IMG/VR virus record: IMGVR_UViG_3300045988_098930
DNA length: 64,000 nt
Strand: one strand, 5' to 3'
DNA from: a virus
Of this stretch, positions 9,737 to 64,000 are shown one piece after another. The notes beneath the pieces were generated by a model. It searched no databases. It was not told the DNA's origin and saw only the letters and a program-made list of their open reading frames with translations. The translations under genes and the position numbers were made by a program. Every line of letters begins with the position of its first letter. Within the stretch, counting starts at the first letter, position 1.

Positions 9737-10239
9737 TGCCGAACCTCTCTGAGTATACCGATATTAAAAAAAAGATTATCAATCTCATAGTTCACGACCG
9801 TGAGTGTGTAGACTTAATCTCTAACACAACCGGCAAGACGTTGCCTGCCGCTGATTTGATTCAAACTTCTAAGTCTGTCAATCAGATACACCCGTATGAC
9901 TTTATGCCGGGGTCAACCGAGCAGGCTGAGTGCCATGTGGGTGTCGAAGTATATGACGATAAAATTATCAATAACGCGGTGGCGAGGTACGAGGTTGATA
10001 TTTTGATTTTTGTGCCGACTGTGTTGATGGTAATGGACGGCGGCGTGCGGCGTGACGCTATCGCGGCGGCCATAGATAGGCTGATAAACAATAATCTGTC
10101 ATTGGGCATAGGTGAAGTTAGACGTATTCCAGGGGCTTGCAAAGAGCCGATGGATGGTTATAGGTTGCGTATTCTGCGGTATCGTGTGGGTAATTACAAC
10201 AATCTGGGAGAAACCCTTAATGCCTTTAGATACGATTAA
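9727..10239 (+). CDS. Hypothetical structural protein
   Basis: 170-aa ORF, overlapping starts and stops, in the head-tail region. Confidence 0.45.
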   Translation: MDLMPNLSEYTDIKKKIINLIVHDRECVDLISNTTGKTLPAADLIQTSKSVNQIHPYDFMPGSTEQAECHVGVEVYDDKIINNAVARYEVDILIFVPTVLMVMDGGVRRDAIAAAIDRLINNNLSLGIGEVRRIPGACKEPMDGYRLRILRYRVGNYNNLGETLNAFRYD

Positions 10240-28060: not shown

Positions 28061-28954
28061 ATGAGTTCTACAACTGAATATGCTGGCTTACTGCTTGTAG
28101 ACCCGTTGGGTGCGGATAGCGCCATGTCGGGCAGCTCTTGGGTGGAGTCACAGGCGGGCATAGCGTCCACCAGCAATATGCAAATTATAGATGCCTTGCT
28201 GAAACAGAAGGCTTCTTTTACTGTAAAAACAGCCGACGAATGGAGCGCAGACACCACCACTATTCTTCGTGCAAATGATTTTGGCGTGGTGTCTGACACA
28301 GGTGAAGTGCGGCGTGGCGACGGTATTCACGCATGGGGTGAATTGACTACATTTGACCCCGGTAATGCCAGTGGCAAGGTGGATAAAGTGCTGGGTGCTG
28401 TCGGTCATTTAGTGCAGTTTGCCAATGACGGTGCAATAGCTGATAGCGGCAAAAAGATAGATGATTTTGCCTCTGCAACGCATACGCATGGCAATTTGAC
28501 CAATGATGGTAAACTCGGTTCTGTGGCAGATCAAGTAGCTGTGACTGATACTGGCGGTGCTTTGATCACTAAATCGGCGGCTGAAATGCGGACTTTGCTG
28601 GATGTGCCGCAAAGCGACAGTAAGCAGGATAAGATAACGGTGCAGGGCATTGTGAAGGGTGACGGTGCAGGCGGCGTGTCTGCGGCTCAAAGTGGTGTAG
28701 ATTTCGCATTGCCTGCTACGCTCTATACTGCTACATTGACTGCGGCGGGTTGGAACAATAAATCTCAAACTGTAAGTGTTGCTGGTGTGACCGCTAATAA
28801 TGTGGTGTTGGTGCAGGCGCAAGCCGATTCCAGTCAGGCGTATCGCGTGGCTAAAGTGATGGCTGATGCTACGCAAGTGGCTGGGCAACTGACATTTAGT
28901 TGCACCACTACGCCTACTGTCGATTTGACCGTTATGATTATTGTGTTGGGTTAG
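28061..28954 (+). CDS. Tail fibre protein
   Basis: N-terminal fibre motif (EWSADTTTILRANDFGVVSDTGEVRRGDGIHAWGEL), THTHGNLTNDGKLG motif, and a C-terminal Ig-like module shared with the next gene. Confidence 0.7.
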   Translation: MSSTTEYAGLLLVDPLGADSAMSGSSWVESQAGIASTSNMQIIDALLKQKASFTVKTADEWSADTTTILRANDFGVVSDTGEVRRGDGIHAWGELTTFDPGNASGKVDKVLGAVGHLVQFANDGAIADSGKKIDDFASATHTHGNLTNDGKLGSVADQVAVTDTGGALITKSAAEMRTLLDVPQSDSKQDKITVQGIVKGDGAGGVSAAQSGVDFALPATLYTATLTAAGWNNKSQTVSVAGVTANNVVLVQAQADSSQAYRVAKVMADATQVAGQLTFSCTTTPTVDLTVMIIVLG

Positions 28955-28964
28955 GGGTGATTGT

Positions 28965-29474
28965 ATGGCTATTGTAAATATAGGGGCTGGTAGCGGCTCT
29001 GAATATGGTGTATACGTTGGTACAGTTGCCCCTACTGACCCCAGCACTACTGTGTGGATTGTGCCAGATGACGAACCGACTACGATTGATGATATAGCGG
29101 CACAGGTAGTGATTAAGCCCACGACTAATACTACATTATCAGGCGTGCTTAAAGGCGCAAATGGTAAGATGGCGCAAGCAGTGGCGGGAACAGATTATCA
29201 AACGCCTTTAACTGCGGGTACGGATTACGCACAGCCGAGTATAACTGTAACGGTTACGTTGTCTGCAACGGGTTGGACTGATAATACGCAAACAGTGGCG
29301 GTGACTGGTGTGACTACTACTAATGCTATAATGATCGCTCCTGCTCCCGTATCTTTTTTAGCGTATTGTGATTCTCAGGTACGGGCAACAGCGCAGGCGG
29401 CTAATGCGCTTACATTCGCTTGCGAAGATGCGCCGACTGAGAATTTGACTGTGAATATTTTGATTATGAGGTGA
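28965..29474 (+). CDS. Tail fibre-associated protein with duplicated C-terminal module
   Basis: ORF track 28941..29474. ATG 28965 lies behind AGGGGTGA. The C-terminus (TVTLSATGWTDNTQTVAVTGVTTTN...LTVNILI) parallels the end of 28061..28954. Confidence 0.55.
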   Translation: MAIVNIGAGSGSEYGVYVGTVAPTDPSTTVWIVPDDEPTTIDDIAAQVVIKPTTNTTLSGVLKGANGKMAQAVAGTDYQTPLTAGTDYAQPSITVTVTLSATGWTDNTQTVAVTGVTTTNAIMIAPAPVSFLAYCDSQVRATAQAANALTFACEDAPTENLTVNILIMR

Positions 29475-29481
29475 TTGAACT

Positions 29482-29772
29482 ATGCTTTTTAATGCAAGTG
29501 ATAGTGGGCCGCGCAATGTTTCTTCCCTCCCCGCCAGCGGCGCGGCACTGACGGCAAATACTATATATAATGCATCTTCTCCTGTTGGTACATATGTATT
29601 CACCCCTCCCGCATCCGGCTGGGCGCATGGCACATTTACTACGGGTAGTAGTGTATCGGTGTCATTTAGTGGCACATTCATTGGCGCGGCCCCGGCAATA
29701 GAGGCAAACAAGACCTATGAATTTGATGTATACAATGGCGTGTGGGCAGTACAGGAGGTTGTGAGCGCATGA
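29482..29772 (+). CDS. Hypothetical fibre-cassette protein
   Basis: 96-aa ORF. Its stop overlaps the next ATG. Confidence 0.4.
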   Translation: MLFNASDSGPRNVSSLPASGAALTANTIYNASSPVGTYVFTPPASGWAHGTFTTGSSVSVSFSGTFIGAAPAIEANKTYEFDVYNGVWAVQEVVSA

Positions 29773-30150: not shown

Positions 30151-30195
30151 ATGTGTAAAATAATTCTATCGGGGGGGGCAGCCTCCGTAAAATAA
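30151..30195 (+). CDS. 14-codon leader ORF containing a G8 tract
   Basis: ATG lies 7 nt after AAAGGAG. Translates to MCKIILSGGAASVK*. It sits upstream of an RBS-less gene. Confidence 0.3.
   Translation: MCKIILSGGAASVK
30171..30178 (+). repeat. Homopolymeric G8 tract
   Basis: Read directly: tatcGGGGGGGGcagc. Confidence 0.95.
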
Positions 30196-30211
30196 AAAGC
30201 GCCTACGCGCT

Positions 30212-31105
30212 ATGATACCATTGCAGTTTGCCTTACGGCGCAGAATGATGATGGCAGGGGGAGGCTTACTGCCAAGTGGATTTACCCTCCTTGCGTGGAT
30301 AAAAGGCACAGGTACACAGTACATTGATACCGGGTTTGTGGTTAATAAGTCCGATAACTATGTGTTAGAAATAGACGGGTTATTTCCTTCGCAGGCGCAG
30401 GTGTATCAAGGTTGCAATGGCTATATGCAGTTTTTCACCAGTAGTAAATATGGTATAAGTGGCGATAGCTCTGTTGCAGTTGGTAATCGTAATACCGTGC
30501 GCGTAGAGTACGCTAATCAAACTGAAAAACTCTTTGTAGACGGAGCACAAATAGAGAGTAAACTGTGGTCAGCATACAATGGTTCTAATGTAAAACTTGC
30601 ATTATTACGCATGGGCGATGCCAACAACGGGTGGTACAATGGGGCAGCAGCTCAAGGTACGATATACGGTTATAAGGTGTGGAAGAACAATATCCTTGTT
30701 TCGGAATGTGTACCTTGTATACGTAATAGCGATGGTGCTGCCGGAGTGTATGATGTTATCCGAGAACAGTTTATTACTCCTGTCAACGGTGTGTTTTTGA
30801 CTCCTGATGGCGTCACTTATACGGTTACTACGAACTATATACCGGTTGCCGGACTTGTAACAGTAAACGGTTTAGATCTTCCGGTTAGTAACTCAACCAC
30901 AATTTACGCCGTTCCTTCCGGTGTGACAATCATTCTCCGTGCTCGTAGCGAGAGCACAAGCCAACTGGATATAACCGTGGATGACGTGGTTGTAGCAAGC
31001 GCATCACCGTTTCAGAGTGTCAGCTATACGTATGCCGTTACTAAAAACTGCACTGTACACGTATCCAATTCGGCAGCCGGCCAACGCTCATGGATAACAA
31101 CGTAA
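30212..31105 (+). CDS. Putative receptor-binding / fibre-like protein (MIPLQFALRRRMMM N-terminus)
   Basis: 297-aa ORF. No Shine-Dalgarno is visible in the 20 nt before the ATG. Confidence 0.5.
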   Translation: MIPLQFALRRRMMMAGGGLLPSGFTLLAWIKGTGTQYIDTGFVVNKSDNYVLEIDGLFPSQAQVYQGCNGYMQFFTSSKYGISGDSSVAVGNRNTVRVEYANQTEKLFVDGAQIESKLWSAYNGSNVKLALLRMGDANNGWYNGAAAQGTIYGYKVWKNNILVSECVPCIRNSDGAAGVYDVIREQFITPVNGVFLTPDGVTYTVTTNYIPVAGLVTVNGLDLPVSNSTTIYAVPSGVTIILRARSESTSQLDITVDDVVVASASPFQSVSYTYAVTKNCTVHVSNSAAGQRSWITT

Positions 31106-38485: not shown

Positions 38486-38524
38486 AATAGGGAAGCTGTG
38501 TATGATAGCTTCCCTATTTTTTTT
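38486..38524 (+). terminator. Terminator-like hairpin (ATAGGGAA-stem family)
   Basis: AATAGGGAAGCT / AGCTTCCCTATT stem, 9-nt loop, T8 on the plus strand. It lies between dut and the integrase operon on the minus strand. Confidence 0.5.
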
Positions 38525-58793: not shown

Positions 58794-58877
58794 TGGTGCT
58801 CAAGGCGGGATTTGAACCCGCAAGGCTTTTGCCGACAGATTTTAAGTCTGTTGTGTATGCCGTTCCACCACTTGAGC
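58794..58877 (-). tRNA. tRNA-Leu (anticodon UAA), CCA encoded
   Basis: Hand fold: acceptor GCTCAAG/CTTGAGC, anticodon arm ACAGA-CTTAAAA-TCTGT, long variable arm CGGCAAAAGCC, T arm GCGGG-TTCAAAT-CCCGC, then ACCA. Confidence 0.85.
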
Positions 58878-58958
58878 GTGATGCCCGTCTTTCCGAGCTG
58901 TCACAAGTCTGTTCCCTGTTGTCAACTCTATTAAGGGGAGTTCAATGCGGTTGCCCGC

Positions 58959-59034
58959 TGGCTGAGGTGGCAGGATTTGAACCTGCGTGTGTCAGAGTCA
59001 AAGTCTGATGCCTTTACCACTTGGCGACACCTCA
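58959..59034 (-). tRNA. tRNA-Gln (anticodon UUG), CCA encoded
   Basis: Hand fold: acceptor TGAGGTG/CACCTCA, D arm GCC...GGC, anticodon arm TCAGA-CTTTGAC-TCTGA, T arm GCAGG-TTCAAAT-CCTGC, then GCCA. Confidence 0.85.
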
Positions 59035-60158
59035 ATGCAATGGGCGGTTTGCACCGCCCTAAATTGTTGTTTGATATTGCATATACTACGATATGCGTGA
59101 AAGCGGTGAGCATGGCCTGCCCACGAATCAACCGACACCCGAATGTCGTCTAAACTCATTCGACCCGCCGCTAACCATCGAGCGAACTTCTTTAACTTGC
59201 GCCGCATAGTTGTCACTGATAGCGGACTGAGTTTTCGCCACACACCGCCATGTTTGTTTAAAACATACAACCCCTTTAAGAAAGTCACACCGTTACTCAG
59301 TTTGGCAATCTGCGTCTTTTTAGGGTTTAACTTAATTCCCAACTTATCACATTCGGCTTGCAACTGATATAAACACAAAGTTAAATACTGTTTACTTGGA
59401 TGAATCATATACCCATCATCCATATATCGCGCATAATATTTGATGCCCAACTTTTCTTTCACAAAATGGTCGATACGATTAGGGAGTGCTAAGGCACATA
59501 TCTGTGAGACTTGACTGCCCAGCCCTAATCCTTGATCACCAAATTGTTTGATAAAATATTCGGTTTGCCGAAGCACATCTTGATCTGTGATACAACGGCG
59601 TAACTCCTGAAATACCGCCGCATGATTGGCAGAGTCAAAGTATTTAGAAAAGTCAAACGTGAGTACATAACCTTCATTTGTACCATACTTATTATAGTAT
59701 TGATGTAAATGTTTGACAAGGCGTTGCATCGAAAAGTCAATTCCCTTGCCTTTGAGAGATGCCCCGTTATCGTAAATGAAGGTACTACTAAGAAGTGGTA
59801 TCAAAGCATAATCGCACAGACAACGTTGAATTACCCTTTCCGAAATATGAACACTGCGGATATGTCGCGGTTTGCCGCGTTCAATCAAATCAAATTCTAC
59901 AAACCCCTTACTGCGATATGTTCCGTTTAATAGGCGTTGCCTATCGCAGTAGATATTGTCCAGCGCATTAGCCTTATACTCCTGCACGCTGCACTTCCAG
60001 CCTACGCCCTTGCGCGACGCCTTCCATGCTTTGTATAAGTGCTCCATTGAGAAAATCTCATTAAAGTTACCGACAGCCGCATTGCGCTTGGCGCGTTGTG
60101 CTTCTCGGTATTGTTTGCGGCGTTGATACCGCAGTTCATGCCGTTCTTCACTTGTCAT
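58998..60158 (-). CDS. DGR reverse transcriptase
   Basis: Start at MTSEERHELRY (ATG 60158). RT motifs include LGLGSQVSQ and YMDDGYM. The longer ORF-track form (to 60524) only reads through the TR. The last 37 nt overlap tRNA-Gln. Confidence 0.85.
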   Translation of the reverse strand: MTSEERHELRYQRRKQYREAQRAKRNAAVGNFNEIFSMEHLYKAWKASRKGVGWKCSVQEYKANALDNIYCDRQRLLNGTYRSKGFVEFDLIERGKPRHIRSVHISERVIQRCLCDYALIPLLSSTFIYDNGASLKGKGIDFSMQRLVKHLHQYYNKYGTNEGYVLTFDFSKYFDSANHAAVFQELRRCITDQDVLRQTEYFIKQFGDQGLGLGSQVSQICALALPNRIDHFVKEKLGIKYYARYMDDGYMIHPSKQYLTLCLYQLQAECDKLGIKLNPKKTQIAKLSNGVTFLKGLYVLNKHGGVWRKLSPLSVTTMRRKLKKFARWLAAGRMSLDDIRVSVDSWAGHAHRFHAYRSICNIKQQFRAVQTAHCIEVSPSGKGIRL

Positions 60159-60365: not shown

Positions 60366-60493
60366 GAATCCCAGCGCCACGCCATTCGAGTTATTGGCAT
60401 TGTCATTGTTCGCGCTCCCAGATGTGTTAACCATACAGAAGTTGTTGGAGTTATTGACATTCGCGGAGCGTAGCCAAACATTACAAGCGGAGC
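60366..60493 (-). repeat. DGR template repeat (TR)
   Basis: 128 nt matching 61049-61176 at 112 positions. In coding sense it is rich in AAY codons (SANVNNSNNFCMVNTSGSANNDNANNSNG). Confidence 0.85.
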
Positions 60494-60524: not shown

Positions 60525-60947
60525 TTATGAGGAAGTCTTGCCAGCTTTTAGTTTAAGGAAACGCGCTTTGTCGGTTTTCTTAACACCTTGAATCAATTCC
60601 ATTTCCTTGTGGATCATAGCTATCCATGCTTCTTCGGCGTTTAAAGAGATAATGCAATCTTCGTAAGCTAAAGTAATTTCATCATATAGATTTTGCAGGC
60701 ATTGATACGCCTTGTTCAAATAACGGGTGCGCTCATCAAGCTGGGCTTGGTTGTTTACATATACACCATTAGCGGCACGCACATAATTGCAGCAATGCGC
60801 CGCTAATTCGTTGATTCTGGCCCCGCCATAAAATGTGCGACGTTTAGGAAATTTTAACGCCTTAGCACGGCTATACCGCCACAAATCCATGGCAGTATCT
60901 AAAAACTGTACATTACTTTTCTTACGTTTGCTTGCATATACCGACAT
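60525..60947 (-). CDS. avd: Accessory variability determinant (Avd-like)
   Basis: 140-aa basic, helical-looking protein between the VR and TR, the position and size typical of Avd. Confidence 0.65.
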   Translation of the reverse strand: MSVYASKRKKSNVQFLDTAMDLWRYSRAKALKFPKRRTFYGGARINELAAHCCNYVRAANGVYVNNQAQLDERTRYLNKAYQCLQNLYDEITLAYEDCIISLNAEEAWIAMIHKEMELIQGVKKTDKARFLKLKAGKTSS

Positions 60948-61011
60948 TGTTTGTTCCTTTCATATTTTCGCCTGCCGTTGCTTCCCCTAACGGGGAAGTC
61001 AACGGGGGATT

Positions 61012-61030
61012 AAGGCGCTTTGCAAGCGCC
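61012..61030 (-). promoter_or_regulatory. GC-rich hairpin just downstream of the VR (candidate DGR target-recognition hairpin)
   Basis: AGGCGCTT-TGC-AAGCGCCT, 10 nt past the target stop codon. A second hairpin at 60973-61003 (CCGTTGCTTCCCC-TAAC-GGGGAAGTCAACGG) follows. Confidence 0.5.
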
Positions 61031-61039
61031 TATTTCCGA

Positions 61040-61954
61040 TTAAATACAGAAGCCCAGCGCCACGCCATACGAGTTACTGGCAATGTCACGGTTCGCGCTC
61101 CCAGATGCGTTAACCACACAGAAGGAGTAGGAGTTAACGACATACGCGGACCGTAGCCAAACATAACAAGCGGAGCCGTTCTGTGTAAAGATGTTGCTAC
61201 TCCGAGTGTACTTGACACCCTCTTGCGTGCCGGAGTAAGAAGTTACACCCAGAATTTCATACTCAGACCCCGGCCACAGCCTATCTGATGTAGGATTTGC
61301 GCCCTTATTATTTACCTTATTAACAGCCTTAATGCCGTTCGTTGCCTGTAATTCTGCGGGCAACAAAGTGAGATATGAAGGTACAGTCGTAGAACGCATC
61401 CGAGACGCACCCCAGCCACCCTCATTTGTGTTGCTACTATTCATCTGAGCGCTGGCAGAAAAGCACTGCTTCATAAAGAAGGTTGCCGCAGCCTTACCGC
61501 CTGTGCCGCCGCCATCAGTACGAGCATCGGTACGTACACCGCATAATTCAACCGCAACAGTTTCAGAACCAAACGTCACATTCTTGGCCGCTTTAAGTGT
61601 AAACCCATTGAAATTCGTTATCAATTCACCGCTATTACATATAGAAATGATTTGTTCCCACGTCAACGCCGAGAACGGACTATTGGTACTGAATAACTGC
61701 CACACACCCGCCACTCCGATATAGGCGTTGCAATACACCCATGTCGAACCGTTATACTGCATTGTGAGTCCGGGAGTCAGAGTTAAATTTTGTTTACCGG
61801 CCACATTAAGCTGATAGCCGCCACCATCTACTGTATGCACCCACAAATCGCCATTAGCGGGTTCAGCGGGCTTGACATAAGAAAAATAAATCGTTTCAGG
61901 CGTAGTAGCAGTTAATACTACTACCTGACCATCAACGACTGCGCTGGGGAGCAA
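61040..61954 (-). CDS. DGR target protein with C-terminal variable region (C-type-lectin-like ending ...WLRSAYVVNSYSFCVVNASGSANRDIASNSYGVALGFCI)
   Basis: As assembled, the frame has only a TTG start (61954) with no RBS. It is open upstream through a G12 tract and would join ATG 62024 if the tract were 11 nt. Confidence 0.75.
   Translation of the reverse strand: MLPSAVVDGQVVVLTATTPETIYFSYVKPAEPANGDLWVHTVDGGGYQLNVAGKQNLTLTPGLTMQYNGSTWVYCNAYIGVAGVWQLFSTNSPFSALTWEQIISICNSGELITNFNGFTLKAAKNVTFGSETVAVELCGVRTDARTDGGGTGGKAAATFFMKQCFSASAQMNSSNTNEGGWGASRMRSTTVPSYLTLLPAELQATNGIKAVNKVNNKGANPTSDRLWPGSEYEILGVTSYSGTQEGVKYTRSSNIFTQNGSACYVWLRSAYVVNSYSFCVVNASGSANRDIASNSYGVALGFCI
61049..61176 (-). repeat. DGR variable repeat (VR)
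   Basis: Hand alignment to the TR gives 16 mismatches, 15 at TR adenines (coding sense) and one C-to-G. Confidence 0.85.
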
Positions 61955-61970
61955 AGAAGCTATCTGTATA

Positions 61971-62024
61971 TCAAAGGATACCCCCCCCCCCCGATTTTTT
62001 GTTACATACCATATTAAATAACAT
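61971..62024 (-). CDS. 17-codon ORF (MLFNMVCNKKSGGGGIL*) that is probably the true, out-of-frame 5' end of the DGR target gene
   Basis: ATG 62024 lies downstream of AAAGGAGGA. The ORF runs into the G12 tract and terminates at TGA only because of the tract length. Confidence 0.4.
   Translation of the reverse strand: MLFNMVCNKKSGGGGIL
61981..61992 (-). repeat. Homopolymeric G12 tract (C12 on the plus strand)
   Basis: Read directly: ggataCCCCCCCCCCCCgatttttt. Confidence 0.95.
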
Positions 62025-62032
62025 GAAATTTT

Positions 62033-62467
62033 TTAATCCTCCTTTATTTGTTCGAACGACACAGTGACCGGCATACGCCAACCGGTCTGACTGGCGTTTA
62101 ATATGGCCGTTATGAAATTCTTGGCTAACATGTCTTGGACCGCAGGCTGATTAAGCTCCGCTCTAATCATAGCCGAAAAGGCCGCTTGATTATTTTCAAT
62201 CATTGTGGCTATTTCCTTAGACACAGTATCTTTGATAGCATTAGTTGCCAACCACCGCAAATACGGTTGCGCCCGATATGAACTCGAAGAACATGGTTCA
62301 CCTCTTTCATTTACCGAGCTGGCGACAACCGCCCGCACAGCTTTGCGCACTAATTCAGTTTTATCGCCCAACGCATCAGCGATTGCTATGCACACAGCGT
62401 CGCTTACATTCTTTTCTATCAGAGCCTTGTCTATTTCAATGCCCATACTCAGTTTTTCAGTTGCCAT
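62033..62467 (-). CDS. Hypothetical protein
   Basis: 144-aa ORF behind AAAGGAGGTGATGAGGA, directly upstream of the DGR target. Confidence 0.5.
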   Translation of the reverse strand: MATEKLSMGIEIDKALIEKNVSDAVCIAIADALGDKTELVRKAVRAVVASSVNERGEPCSSSSYRAQPYLRWLATNAIKDTVSKEIATMIENNQAAFSAMIRAELNQPAVQDMLAKNFITAILNASQTGWRMPVTVSFEQIKED

Positions 62468-62483
62468 TCCTCATCACCTCCTT

Positions 62484-63230
62484 TTAAAACGAATAATCGT
62501 TTATCCATGACTCTATCCACAAACGCGCATCCTCCTTCTCCATGAAAAAATGAATACCGGTAGAACATTCGTTCCATCTGTTTGTATCATAATCGTCAAC
62601 TTGAAGTGTTTGCCCAATTGTATACATAAAAGCATAATTATATATACTATGGATCGGCACTGCATCGGGAAGCTGTTGACCATTAGACAAGGTGTAAGCA
62701 TCTAATACTATCGCCTTATTGCATCGGCATTTTCGAGTAGTTGCGCTACTTCTGTACGCATCGGCTGGAATTTCAAGTGTGACCAATACGGGGCATATAT
62801 GCAGATCTGGATCATAGCACCATGCCCCCTTGTACCCAATAAAGCTGCCGTTCATGGGACATTGAGGACGATAATAAAGCGTCTTATCATTAACAATCGC
62901 AGTCTCTAAGCCACAGCAAAGAATAAATTTGCAAGTATACAAATTCGCATGGCACAAATTTACTTCTTGCAAATCACAGTGTACAAAGCTAACACACCTC
63001 GCTAATGTACATCCTGTGAACACCGCCTTAGTGAAATTACACGCTACAAAATCACACTTGATAAAAACACAATCAATGAATTGCACATAACGCAAATCTT
63101 GATGGGAGGCGTTTATCTTGTTTATCACACAATTCCGCAATACTAATTGCTGGCCTTGACCGTTCTGCTCTATCCACAACCGATGCTGGCGCACACACTC
63201 TTCAAATTGAGCGACATCTATTACGACCAT
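62484..63230 (-). CDS. Pentapeptide-repeat protein with a C-terminal domain of unknown function
   Basis: ORF track 62484..63260. ATG 63230 lies behind AAGGAGAG. A run of about 20 pentapeptide units (e.g. CVFIKCDFVACNFTKAVFTGCTLARCVSFVHCDLQEVNLCHANLY). Confidence 0.6.
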   Translation of the reverse strand: MVVIDVAQFEECVRQHRLWIEQNGQGQQLVLRNCVINKINASHQDLRYVQFIDCVFIKCDFVACNFTKAVFTGCTLARCVSFVHCDLQEVNLCHANLYTCKFILCCGLETAIVNDKTLYYRPQCPMNGSFIGYKGAWCYDPDLHICPVLVTLEIPADAYRSSATTRKCRCNKAIVLDAYTLSNGQQLPDAVPIHSIYNYAFMYTIGQTLQVDDYDTNRWNECSTGIHFFMEKEDARLWIESWINDYSF

Positions 63231-63241
63231 ATATTCTCTCC

Positions 63242-63922
63242 TTACGCTACTAAAGTACACACCTTATCCTTAACGTGCAAAGCAAGCGGAACGAGTTCGC
63301 CAATCATTTCCTTTATATAATCATTATCACCAGCTTCAGCATTAAGATTTAAGGTTTTAGAATTAAGATAAGTTTCCAATTCGGATTTGGTCGTACACAA
63401 GAACTTTTTAAGCCCACCCATAGTATATGACGGCATAACAGGTTCGGCAAGGGGTGTCGGCTCTTGTTGCGCCAGTTCCCTTTCCAGCCGCTTGTTCTCG
63501 GCTCGAAGATTAGTCAATTCCCGCATTTGCTCAGAAGTCAAAGCATTGTCCTCCAACGCTTCTGTTTGCTCTAACAACTCTTGAATATACCCGTTAGCCT
63601 CATTGATCTTCTGTTGCGAATCCTGCAACTTGCACTTCAGATTATAATTTTCGCTGTTAGCCTTCTGGTAGTTCTCGTAAGCCCGTCTACAATCTTCTTG
63701 TAGTTTATCTATTTTGGCAACCAGTTCAGGATCACCCTTCTGTTTAAGCTCAGTAATACGGTCATCCAGTTCGTTATTCTTCGCCACAATCAAATTAAGC
63801 CTATTGGCAAGCGACGCATTAGTACCTTGCCATTGCTTTTCCTTTTGCTCCATTTCAACTTGCTGTTGCCGTATCTGACACAAATATTTGTCAGTGAGCT
63901 TGGCTGTGATACGCTCCTTCAC
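63242..63922 (-). CDS. Coiled-coil hypothetical protein (5' end may lie beyond the window)
   Basis: 226-aa ORF from GTG 63922. The frame stays open up to the window edge. Confidence 0.45.
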   Translation of the reverse strand: MKERITAKLTDKYLCQIRQQQVEMEQKEKQWQGTNASLANRLNLIVAKNNELDDRITELKQKGDPELVAKIDKLQEDCRRAYENYQKANSENYNLKCKLQDSQQKINEANGYIQELLEQTEALEDNALTSEQMRELTNLRAENKRLERELAQQEPTPLAEPVMPSYTMGGLKKFLCTTKSELETYLNSKTLNLNAEAGDNDYIKEMIGELVPLALHVKDKVCTLVA

Positions 63923-64000
63923 CGGCAGAGCATTATAAAGCTGCTCCTGCTCGTCCTCTGATAGCTTGCCTATGATACGTGAAGCGACGCTGGCAGATAC

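Follow-up and report, generated by a model that had tools for sequence, protein, structure and literature searches.

A diversity-generating retroelement (DGR) was found in a 64,000-nucleotide (nt) stretch of viral DNA (IMG/VR virus record IMGVR_UViG_3300045988_098930; this whole stretch is hereafter called the window), and its target gene contains a run of 12 G residues close to the start codon. Based on comparison with related assemblies, this G run is probably a slipped-strand contingency switch located at codons 11–15 of the DGR target gene, which would be ON at in-frame lengths of the run and OFF at the others. An earlier reading of the same DNA, made from its letters alone (the sequence-only reading), had proposed such a switch, and the proposal is supported by tract lengths of 8 to 14 in 12 assemblies, by the length differences seen on near-clonal backbones and by purifying selection on the gene.

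The G12 homopolymer is located at 61981..61992 on the minus strand (C12 on the plus strand) and encodes the conserved N-terminal glycine run of the DGR target protein. From the ATG at 62024, the minus strand reads ATG TTA TTT AAT ATG GTA TGT AAC AAA AAA TCG GGG GGG GGG GGT ATC CTT TGA; with G12, as with G9 and G15, this frame is closed by the TGA at 61971..61973 (minus strand) to give a product of 17 amino acids (aa), MLFNMVCNKKSGGGGIL. When tract lengths from G7 to G16 were translated, the full-length target was obtained only with G8, G11 and G14 (326, 327 and 328 aa, respectively), and all other lengths terminated after 16–22 aa. The full-length products read MLFNMVCNKKSGG(G)(G)VSFDIQIASLLPSAVV... 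The frame that bears the variable region (VR) of the DGR is open upstream from the TTG at 61954 through the G tract to the TAA at 62035-62033, and both ATG and GTG are absent from it upstream of this TTG. The TTG (61952..61954, minus strand), which is the first canonical start in the list of open reading frames (ORFs), is the sole canonical start of the VR frame at G12; it has no Shine-Dalgarno (SD) sequence, and a start there loses 23 conserved N-terminal residues. The sequence-only reading had described a G12 tract that separates the target from its ATG, a VR frame with a TTG as its only start, and an ATG 62024 frame that stops at TGA 61973-61971. The run is exactly 12 long, and the minus-strand sequence and the ORF list bore out every detail of this description; translation also agreed with its statement that G11 or G14 restores the frame, G8 being a further in-frame length.

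The tract is exceptional in the window, where it is the sole homopolymer longer than 8 (the runners-up are a C run of 6 and a G run of 8) and where the expectation for a G or C run of at least 12 under independent and identically distributed bases is 0.0017. GGG makes up 11.8% of the glycine codons of the phage (12,776 codons), and the chance that three successive glycine codons are all GGG is 0.0016. A homopolymer of at least ca. 7 bases in the 5′ part of an ORF is one mark of a contingency locus, and here a G12 run occupies codons 11–15; early truncation at off-frame lengths in an ORF that is otherwise intact and constrained is another, and here the off-frame products end at 16–22 aa.

Full-length homologues were retrieved by a search with the G11-corrected protein. 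The homologues at 46–82% identity begin with M-[IL]-F-N and continue with a glycine run: the N-terminus is MIFNMVYGAAAGGVSFNV in P0001 (82% identity), MIFNAVIKGGGGSGASLDV in P0003-7, MGIISCFPGGGGGGADINAV in P0011 and others, and MGIISMFPSGGGGSAGISLDV in P0020/21. The last glycine of the run, which is G14 in the corrected protein, is shared by 18/18 aligned sequences, and the strand after the run, [AV]S[LF][DN][VI]..LPSAVVDGQ, is conserved in the alignment. Because the M-[IL]-F-N motif (conserved in P0001 and P0003-7) and the glycine run are shared by the homologues, the ATG at 62022..62024 (minus strand) is identified as the true start of the DGR target gene, in agreement with the start that the sequence-only reading had chosen. 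A second in-frame ATG occurs at 62012-62010 (minus strand). The SD-like sequence AAAGGAGGA (62037..62045, minus strand) lies in the final codons of the upstream gene (62033..62467), which ends ...GAA CAA ATA AAG GAG GAT TAA with its stop TAA at 62035-62033, and the distance from GGAGG to the ATG is 13 nt. The glycine codons of the homologues are mixed (GGA GCC GCC GCG GGC GGC; GGT GGC GGC GGT; GGC GGT GGA GGT GGC GGC), and no homopolymer occurs at the glycine-run site in homologue DNA at 46–82% identity, where GGT, GGC and GGA codons are used in mixture. The homopolymer is thus specific to the present phage lineage. One homologue, P0009 (310 aa), starts just past the glycine run and was considered as an OFF allele; this was rejected, because its contig shows a gap of Ns in the scaffold, along with an N-terminus that is longer and different.

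Pattern scans for the exact tract flanks turned up 11 other assemblies of the same phage from the human gut, whose blastn identity to the window was 96.6–98.5% for 10 relatives and 92.4% for L016. The G run was uninterrupted in all 11 relatives, and its length ranged from 8 to 14: G8 in L016 (then CATCC; in frame), G10 in L010, G11 in L007, L009, L012 and L014, G12 in L011 and L013 as in the window, G13 in L017, and G14 in L015 (in frame) and L018 (out of frame). Taking the window and the 11 relatives together, the target is in frame in 6/12 and out of frame in 6/12. In L018 (10257-10290), a 31-nt deletion beside the tract shifts the in-frame lengths to 12 or 15 and takes out the conserved VSFDIQIASLL strand, and in L010, whose tract is G10, an extra C follows 44 nt further downstream, at ca. 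1525 (window 61937). The two lesions are beside the tract, and the backbones of these two assemblies otherwise show 0–4 differences from L013. Variation in repeat number among close genomes, with in-frame and out-of-frame alleles both present, is what is expected of a contingency locus.

The length differences are seen on backbones that are nearly the same. In L009 (2967 nt), L012 (2536 nt), L014 (2862 nt), L015 (2890 nt) and L017 (2393 nt), the tract is the sole indel relative to the window. The 790-nt gene bodies of L012, L014, L015 and L017 are identical (516 nt compared for L012), yet their tracts are G11, G11, G14 and G13, respectively. Likewise, L010, L013 and L018 show 0–4 gene-body differences, yet carry G10, G12 and G14, and their VRs differ at 10–17 positions; L011, with G12, has 0–1 differences from this group over the upstream 900 nt, the sole comparable stretch. 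All comparable VRs in both near-clonal groups differ. These comparisons indicate that the G tract and the VR are the two things that change on near-identical backbones. Little weight was given to the G11 of L007, a noisy Logan assembly with 18 scattered single-base indels in which the gene caller split the target gene into three fragments.

The gene behind the tract is constrained. Pairwise ratios of nonsynonymous to synonymous substitution (dN/dS) were 0.02–0.22 over the 795 nt that separate the tract from the VR, and no in-frame stop was present behind the tract in any relative, the out-of-frame assemblies included, which points to strong purifying selection on this frame. The pure tract is retained in L016 at a synonymous divergence (dS) of 0.30. 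Two homopolymers elsewhere served as controls: a coding A8 (9766-9773) was A8 in 6/6 relatives, and the non-coding T8 tail of a terminator (38517-38524) was T7, T8, T8, T8, T9 and T9 in six relatives. Since A8 is invariant and T8 drifts, length change is seen only where it is tolerated, suggesting that homopolymer length is held where the frame matters and drifts where it is irrelevant. A constrained gene with a freely shifting frame at its G tract would, on these comparisons, bear the signature of a contingency gene.

Several observations weigh against a switch. The in-frame share of 6/12, compared with the one third expected for random lengths, has a binomial p of about 0.18; selection for the ON state is therefore not demonstrated, which leaves room for a tolerated hot spot. 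The relatives are only ca. 3% divergent (8% for L016), and tract purity is thus weak evidence of selection on the tract. The four SPAdes/Illumina contigs are all G11 or G12, the lengths 8, 10, 13 and 14 are confined to IMG/VR entries, for which the sequencing platform is not established, and five of these entries share the dataset id 3300045988, their independence being not fully established; their VRs, single-nucleotide polymorphisms or both differ. Lastly, the cassette is situated among early/replication genes, 32 kb from the tail module, and the case for incorporation of the target protein into virions accordingly comes from the homologues only.

The serious rival to the switch is a tolerated mutational hot spot, in which glycines coded by GGG slip unavoidably and a dispensable gene falls OFF without benefit. 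The lack of a significant in-frame excess over one third would fit this explanation, as would the drift of the non-coding T8 between 7 and 9 in the same phages. However, GGG is rarely used in this phage, and a homopolymer is absent from all more distant homologues. A divergence of ca. 3% is too small for tract purity to prove selection, but the tract is still uninterrupted in L016 at dS 0.30, and although the strong purifying selection makes frameshifts costly in the long term, no synonymous change breaks the tract. Moreover, another receptor-binding-type gene has a second variable G tract at its 5′ end, and no other G or C run of at least 8 occurs in the window or the fetched loci. We consider a hot spot without function unlikely, though it has to be taken seriously.

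The sequence-only reading had itself raised the possibility of a homopolymer length error, in which case the real sequence would be the in-frame G11 and the variation among assemblies would be sequencing or assembly noise. G11 is indeed the modal length, one base from the G12 of the window, long G runs are generally known to be error-prone on all platforms, lengths other than 11 and 12 are absent from the Illumina/SPAdes contigs, and coverage is low in two contigs (2.4x in L013 and 4.2x in L014). The lengths 8, 10, 13 and 14, in contrast, lie 2–3 bases off the mode, the contigs with divergent lengths are otherwise free of indels over 2.4–2.9 kb, and the A8 control was called as exactly 8 in the checked contigs (L010, L015, L018 and three others). 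At nearly equal coverage, L011 (12.7x) has G12 and L012 (12.6x) has G11. As an account of the whole variation, noise is thus quite improbable: assembly error cannot explain the range of 8 to 14, and this part of the earlier proviso fell away, whereas a single-base miscall of G12 for G11 in the window itself is possible.

Programmed recoding would place the control point elsewhere than in DNA length, with stuttering of RNA polymerase or +1/-1 ribosomal frameshifting yielding the full-length protein from G12. It is general knowledge that tRNA-Gly re-pairs perfectly in any frame on a G homopolymer and that long homopolymers cause transcriptional slippage, and some leakiness of the OFF state is likely. 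Slippery sites for programmed frameshifting, however, are of fixed length and give two meaningful products; here the length varies from 8 to 14 among near-identical genomes, in-frame lengths included, and G12 read in the zero frame yields 17 aa, for which no second function is apparent. In addition, the stop codon is past the run, not at it, and no stimulatory structure was seen in the local sequence. Recoding as the means of control is therefore held to be very unlikely. That the DGR target is a pseudogene decaying in the present lineage, with the frameshift as its first lesion, is scarcely credible: out-of-frame tracts in half of the assemblies, the extra C at 61937 in L010 and the 31-nt deletion beside the tract in L018 could be read as decay, but dN/dS is 0.02–0.22, in-frame stops are absent in every relative, in-frame alleles occur in both sub-lineages, and the VR is diversified actively and adenine-specifically in all relatives.

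The DGR to which the switched gene belongs is arranged along the minus strand in the order target with VR, two inverted repeats, Avd, template repeat (TR), RT-2 RNA and reverse transcriptase (RT). When read with G11, the target gene extends over 61040..62024 (minus strand; 327 aa). The VR (61049..61176, minus strand) is located at the 3′ end of the target gene, differs in every relative, and is paired with the TR at 60366..60493 (minus strand). TR and VR of the window differ by 16 mismatches, of which 15 are at TR adenines, and in the relatives (n = 5) the own TR and VR differ by 12–23 mismatches, of which 0–1 are at non-A positions. The sole non-adenine mismatch, at window 61151 (minus strand; C in the TR, G in the VR), is specific to the window; since all relatives keep C there, the G is an ordinary point mutation in the VR.

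Just 3′ of the VR, two inverted repeats that are conserved in the relatives occupy 60975..61030 (minus strand). The first is GGCGCTTGCAAAGCGCC at 61030-61014 and the second is CCCCCGTTGACTTCCCC-GTTA-GGGGAAGCAACGG at 61008-60975, a 13-bp stem with a GTTA loop. By analogy, we take their role to be that of the stem-loop downstream of the BPP-1 VR. The Avd-like accessory protein (140 aa; 60525..60947, minus strand) matched phrog_3206, the Avd protein of DGRs (E 2.6e-10), and a Pfam scan of it gave no match. An RT-2 RNA motif (Rfam RF03077; 60143..60361, minus strand) was detected between the TR and the RT start with 109.6 bits (gathering score 40; E 1.4e-25), and presumably serves as a structured spacer in the DGR RNA. 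The RT (58998..60158, minus strand; 386 aa from ATG 60158) matched RVT_1 (E 3.2e-16). Several features by which a DGR is recognised, namely, TR/VR mismatches at adenines, an RT adjoining the TR, Avd, and VR change between otherwise identical genomes, were thus found, and judged by its sequence the DGR (TR, RT-2 RNA, RT, Avd and VR) is complete, intact and, in the relatives, adenine-specific.

Other elements were noted around the cassette. Genes for tRNA-Leu(TAA) and tRNA-Gln(TTG) (window 58794-59034, minus strand) are directly 3′ of the RT, with tRNA-Gln(TTG) overlapping the final codons of the RT ORF. The second gene upstream of the target (62484-63260, minus strand) encodes a pentapeptide-repeat and DUF5758 protein (E 1.1e-28). 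A scan for promoters and terminators around the target gene gave nothing above shuffled expectation. A second DGR-target-like gene of 234 aa is present in the same phage, at 805-1509 of L014, ca. 9 kb past the window end at 64000; it has a VR-like C-terminus (...CTVWLRSASVTDSYFFCVVDTSGSAYYDFANISFGVALGFCV), its DNA is an 82% match to the VR/TR of the window, and its start is without a homopolymer.

The target protein consists of a disordered N-terminal peptide with the glycine run, a beta-rich N-domain, and a C-terminal DUF6273 domain (E 7.3e-8) with the VR. In gut phages, DUF6273 is reported to be C-type-lectin-like and is recognised as a target domain of DGRs (PMC10743442, PMC11792537). The AlphaFold (AF2) model of the target (m9d7d7871d634) has a predicted local distance difference test (pLDDT) score of 81.6, with residues 1–15 disordered. 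This model strongly matches DUF6273 proteins of gut phages, some of which are annotated as tail-collar fibre or receptor-binding proteins, and in a fold search of the PDB its matches to C-type lectins were weak (E about 1). The best PDB match was 9qa6, the IgA peptidase of Thomasclavelia ramosa (E 1.8e-3), whose N-terminal domain is annotated as DUF6273 (PMC12402451). Judged from the model, the target resembles the DUF6273 tail-fibre and receptor-binding proteins of gut phages and would be a protein of the receptor-binding type.

If the G run is a contingency switch, its operation may be pictured as follows. Length changes would arise by polymerase slippage during replication of the phage DNA, the phage encoding its own DNA polymerase, and each burst or stock would be a mixture of ON and OFF genomes. 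ON virions would display the DUF6273 (C-type-lectin-like) binding protein, docked via its N-terminal M-L-F-N...GGG peptide, and OFF virions would be without it. Docking in the tail has a context in the homologues L003, L004 and L006, in which the target follows tail genes. The OFF states would probably be leaky via slippage of RNA polymerase or the ribosome on G10–G14. The phage could thereby vary both the display of an accessory binding protein, in a reversible and binary manner, and its specificity, in a combinatorial manner through the DGR. In the BPP-1 system, DGR homing is independent of translation of the target; the VR could therefore keep changing while the gene is OFF.

The second G tract of the window, a G8 at 30171-30178 on the plus strand, is inside a 14-codon mini-ORF (window 30151-30214) with a strong SD (AAAAAGGAG), a start ATG at 30151 and the product MCKIILSGGAASVK followed by a stop. 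This mini-ORF is just upstream of a 297-aa gene of the tail module (30212..31105), in front of which there is a small hairpin but no SD. In nine assemblies, the window included, the second tract was G8 in four, G9 in three and G10 in two. With G9, the TGA of the mini-ORF overlaps the ATG of the 297-aa gene (ATGA), and with G8 or G10 the stop is 17–22 nt upstream. The position of the G9 stop on ATGA suggests phase-variable translational coupling of the 297-aa gene. Fusion of the mini-ORF at 30151 to this gene was also considered and was rejected for any tract length, because each of the three frames is closed either ahead of the gene or on its ATG. The ca. 150 nt around the second tract are conserved, and the downstream gene body is swapped in most relatives. 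Both G tracts are preceded by ...TC and encode S-G-G-G, and no further G or C run of at least 8 was found in the window or among the loci fetched from these phages. It is possible, and we put it forward only tentatively, that in this phage lineage two host-recognition genes each carry a poly-G contingency tract at the 5′ end, the first gating the DGR target such that display and specificity vary at random, heritably and independently of each other and the OFF state shelters the VR from selection, and the second acting by phase-variable translational coupling.

The tail module was also compared with the surroundings of the target homologues. The upstream 144-aa gene (62033..62467) was considered as the counterpart of the tail gene that precedes the target homologues, and was rejected for lack of similarity. 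The gene just upstream of the target in L003 is homologous to the window tail gene 28941..29474 (46% over 90 aa, E 2e-18), which, as judged from this match, is the real counterpart. This tail gene (plus strand) ends ENLTVNILIMR, and its counterparts end NLTVNILIVG (L001) and DITVNIVIQEAKV (L003). The slot after it in the tail module of the window is occupied by a different protein, 29482..29772 (plus strand), which starts MLFNAS. A paralogue relationship between 29482..29772 and the DGR target was rejected, as only the first four residues match; the shared MLFN start may represent a common docking peptide.

The window covers most of the genome of a gut phage of roughly 100 kb, related contigs being 98–111 kb. 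The plus strand bears the structural arm (terminase, portal and minor tail protein) and the minus strand an arm with DNA polymerase, helicase and NrdD. The two gene arms converge at a terminator-like hairpin, TAGGGAAGCT...AGCTTCCCTA, with a T8 tail (38487-38524, plus strand). The portal shares 30–35% identity with those of Bacillus, Lactococcus and Clostridioides phages, and this similarity to phages of Firmicutes suggests that the host is probably a Gram-positive gut bacterium. No close relative of the cassette was found in GenBank phages by megablast against the phage collection, and no host or prophage was found by scanning genome contigs for the tract and its flanks.

DGRs are the best-known targeted hypermutation system in human-gut phages, and their cost, namely, that most variants bind nothing useful or the wrong thing, is rarely considered. 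If the interpretation of the G run as a switch is correct, a reversible switch would let the phage population hedge between display and non-display of an experimental binding protein. The VR would change while hidden from selection, and the DGR would explore sequence space silently until slippage re-exposes the protein. Phage contingency loci, shown so far in Campylobacter phages and T-even coliphages, would thereby be known also from uncultured gut phages, whose hosts are probably Gram-positive. A practical consequence is that such targets will be wrongly annotated in DGR surveys and by gene callers, either as truncated or with a TTG start, as with the three fragments called in L007. Full-text searches of the literature on DGRs together with phase variation, contingency loci or slipped-strand mispairing gave only papers that treat them as separate mechanisms, and the top-ranked matches on poly-G or homopolymer tracts contained no DGR term. 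The sequence-only reading knew of no described example, and no paper in these searches joined a DGR target with a simple-repeat switch; what would be new here is the placement of such a switch on a DGR target, each kind being known separately and the combination not having been found described.

Among the known systems, hypermutable polyG tracts have reportedly been described in the receptor-binding-protein genes of Campylobacter phages by Sorensen and colleagues in 2021 (Cell Rep 35:109214, cited in PMC10877375), and changes in their length are said to give ON and OFF sub-populations within one stock as a form of bet-hedging. The phage of the window shares with these phages its lytic type and a G homopolymer inside the frame of a host-recognition-type gene, a likeness that is functional only. 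It differs from them in host phylum, the portal being nearest to those of Firmicutes phages, and in that the switched gene is also a DGR target; we know of no DGR in the Campylobacter polyG phages. In T2 and T4, contingency loci consist of short homopolymers (6 or more bases) in genes such as agt and rIIA, where polymerase slippage causes reversible frameshifts and heterogeneous progeny, and repeats are under-represented in tail-fibre genes (Gomez, Barrick & Waters 2025, PMC12633550). The present tract, unlike these, is 8–14 G long and belongs to a receptor-binding-type gene that is coupled to a DGR.

In common with Mtd of Bordetella phage BPP-1, the DGRs of Faecalibacterium prophages (PMC11792537) and the tentaclins (PMC10743442), the DGR of the window has a target with a C-terminal VR, Avd, TR and RT, together with adenine-specific TR-to-VR differences and a DUF6273 domain that bears the VR. 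In none of those descriptions is a homopolymer switch in the target mentioned (neither 'homopolymer' nor 'frameshift' occurs in PMC11792537), and the cassette of the window is situated in the early/replication arm, not in the tail module. Bacterial contingency genes with a 5′ poly-G tract are known from Campylobacter, Neisseria and Haemophilus (e.g. PMC4965091, PMC3786947). The target gene of the window resembles them in that a G run of at least 8 is present in the first codons of a gene for a surface or interaction protein, the frame would set the ON and OFF states, the length is polymorphic among clonal isolates and the ORF is otherwise intact. Unlike the bacterial genes, the putative switch is carried by a phage replicon, would act per burst and not per cell division, and is layered on a retroelement diversifier.

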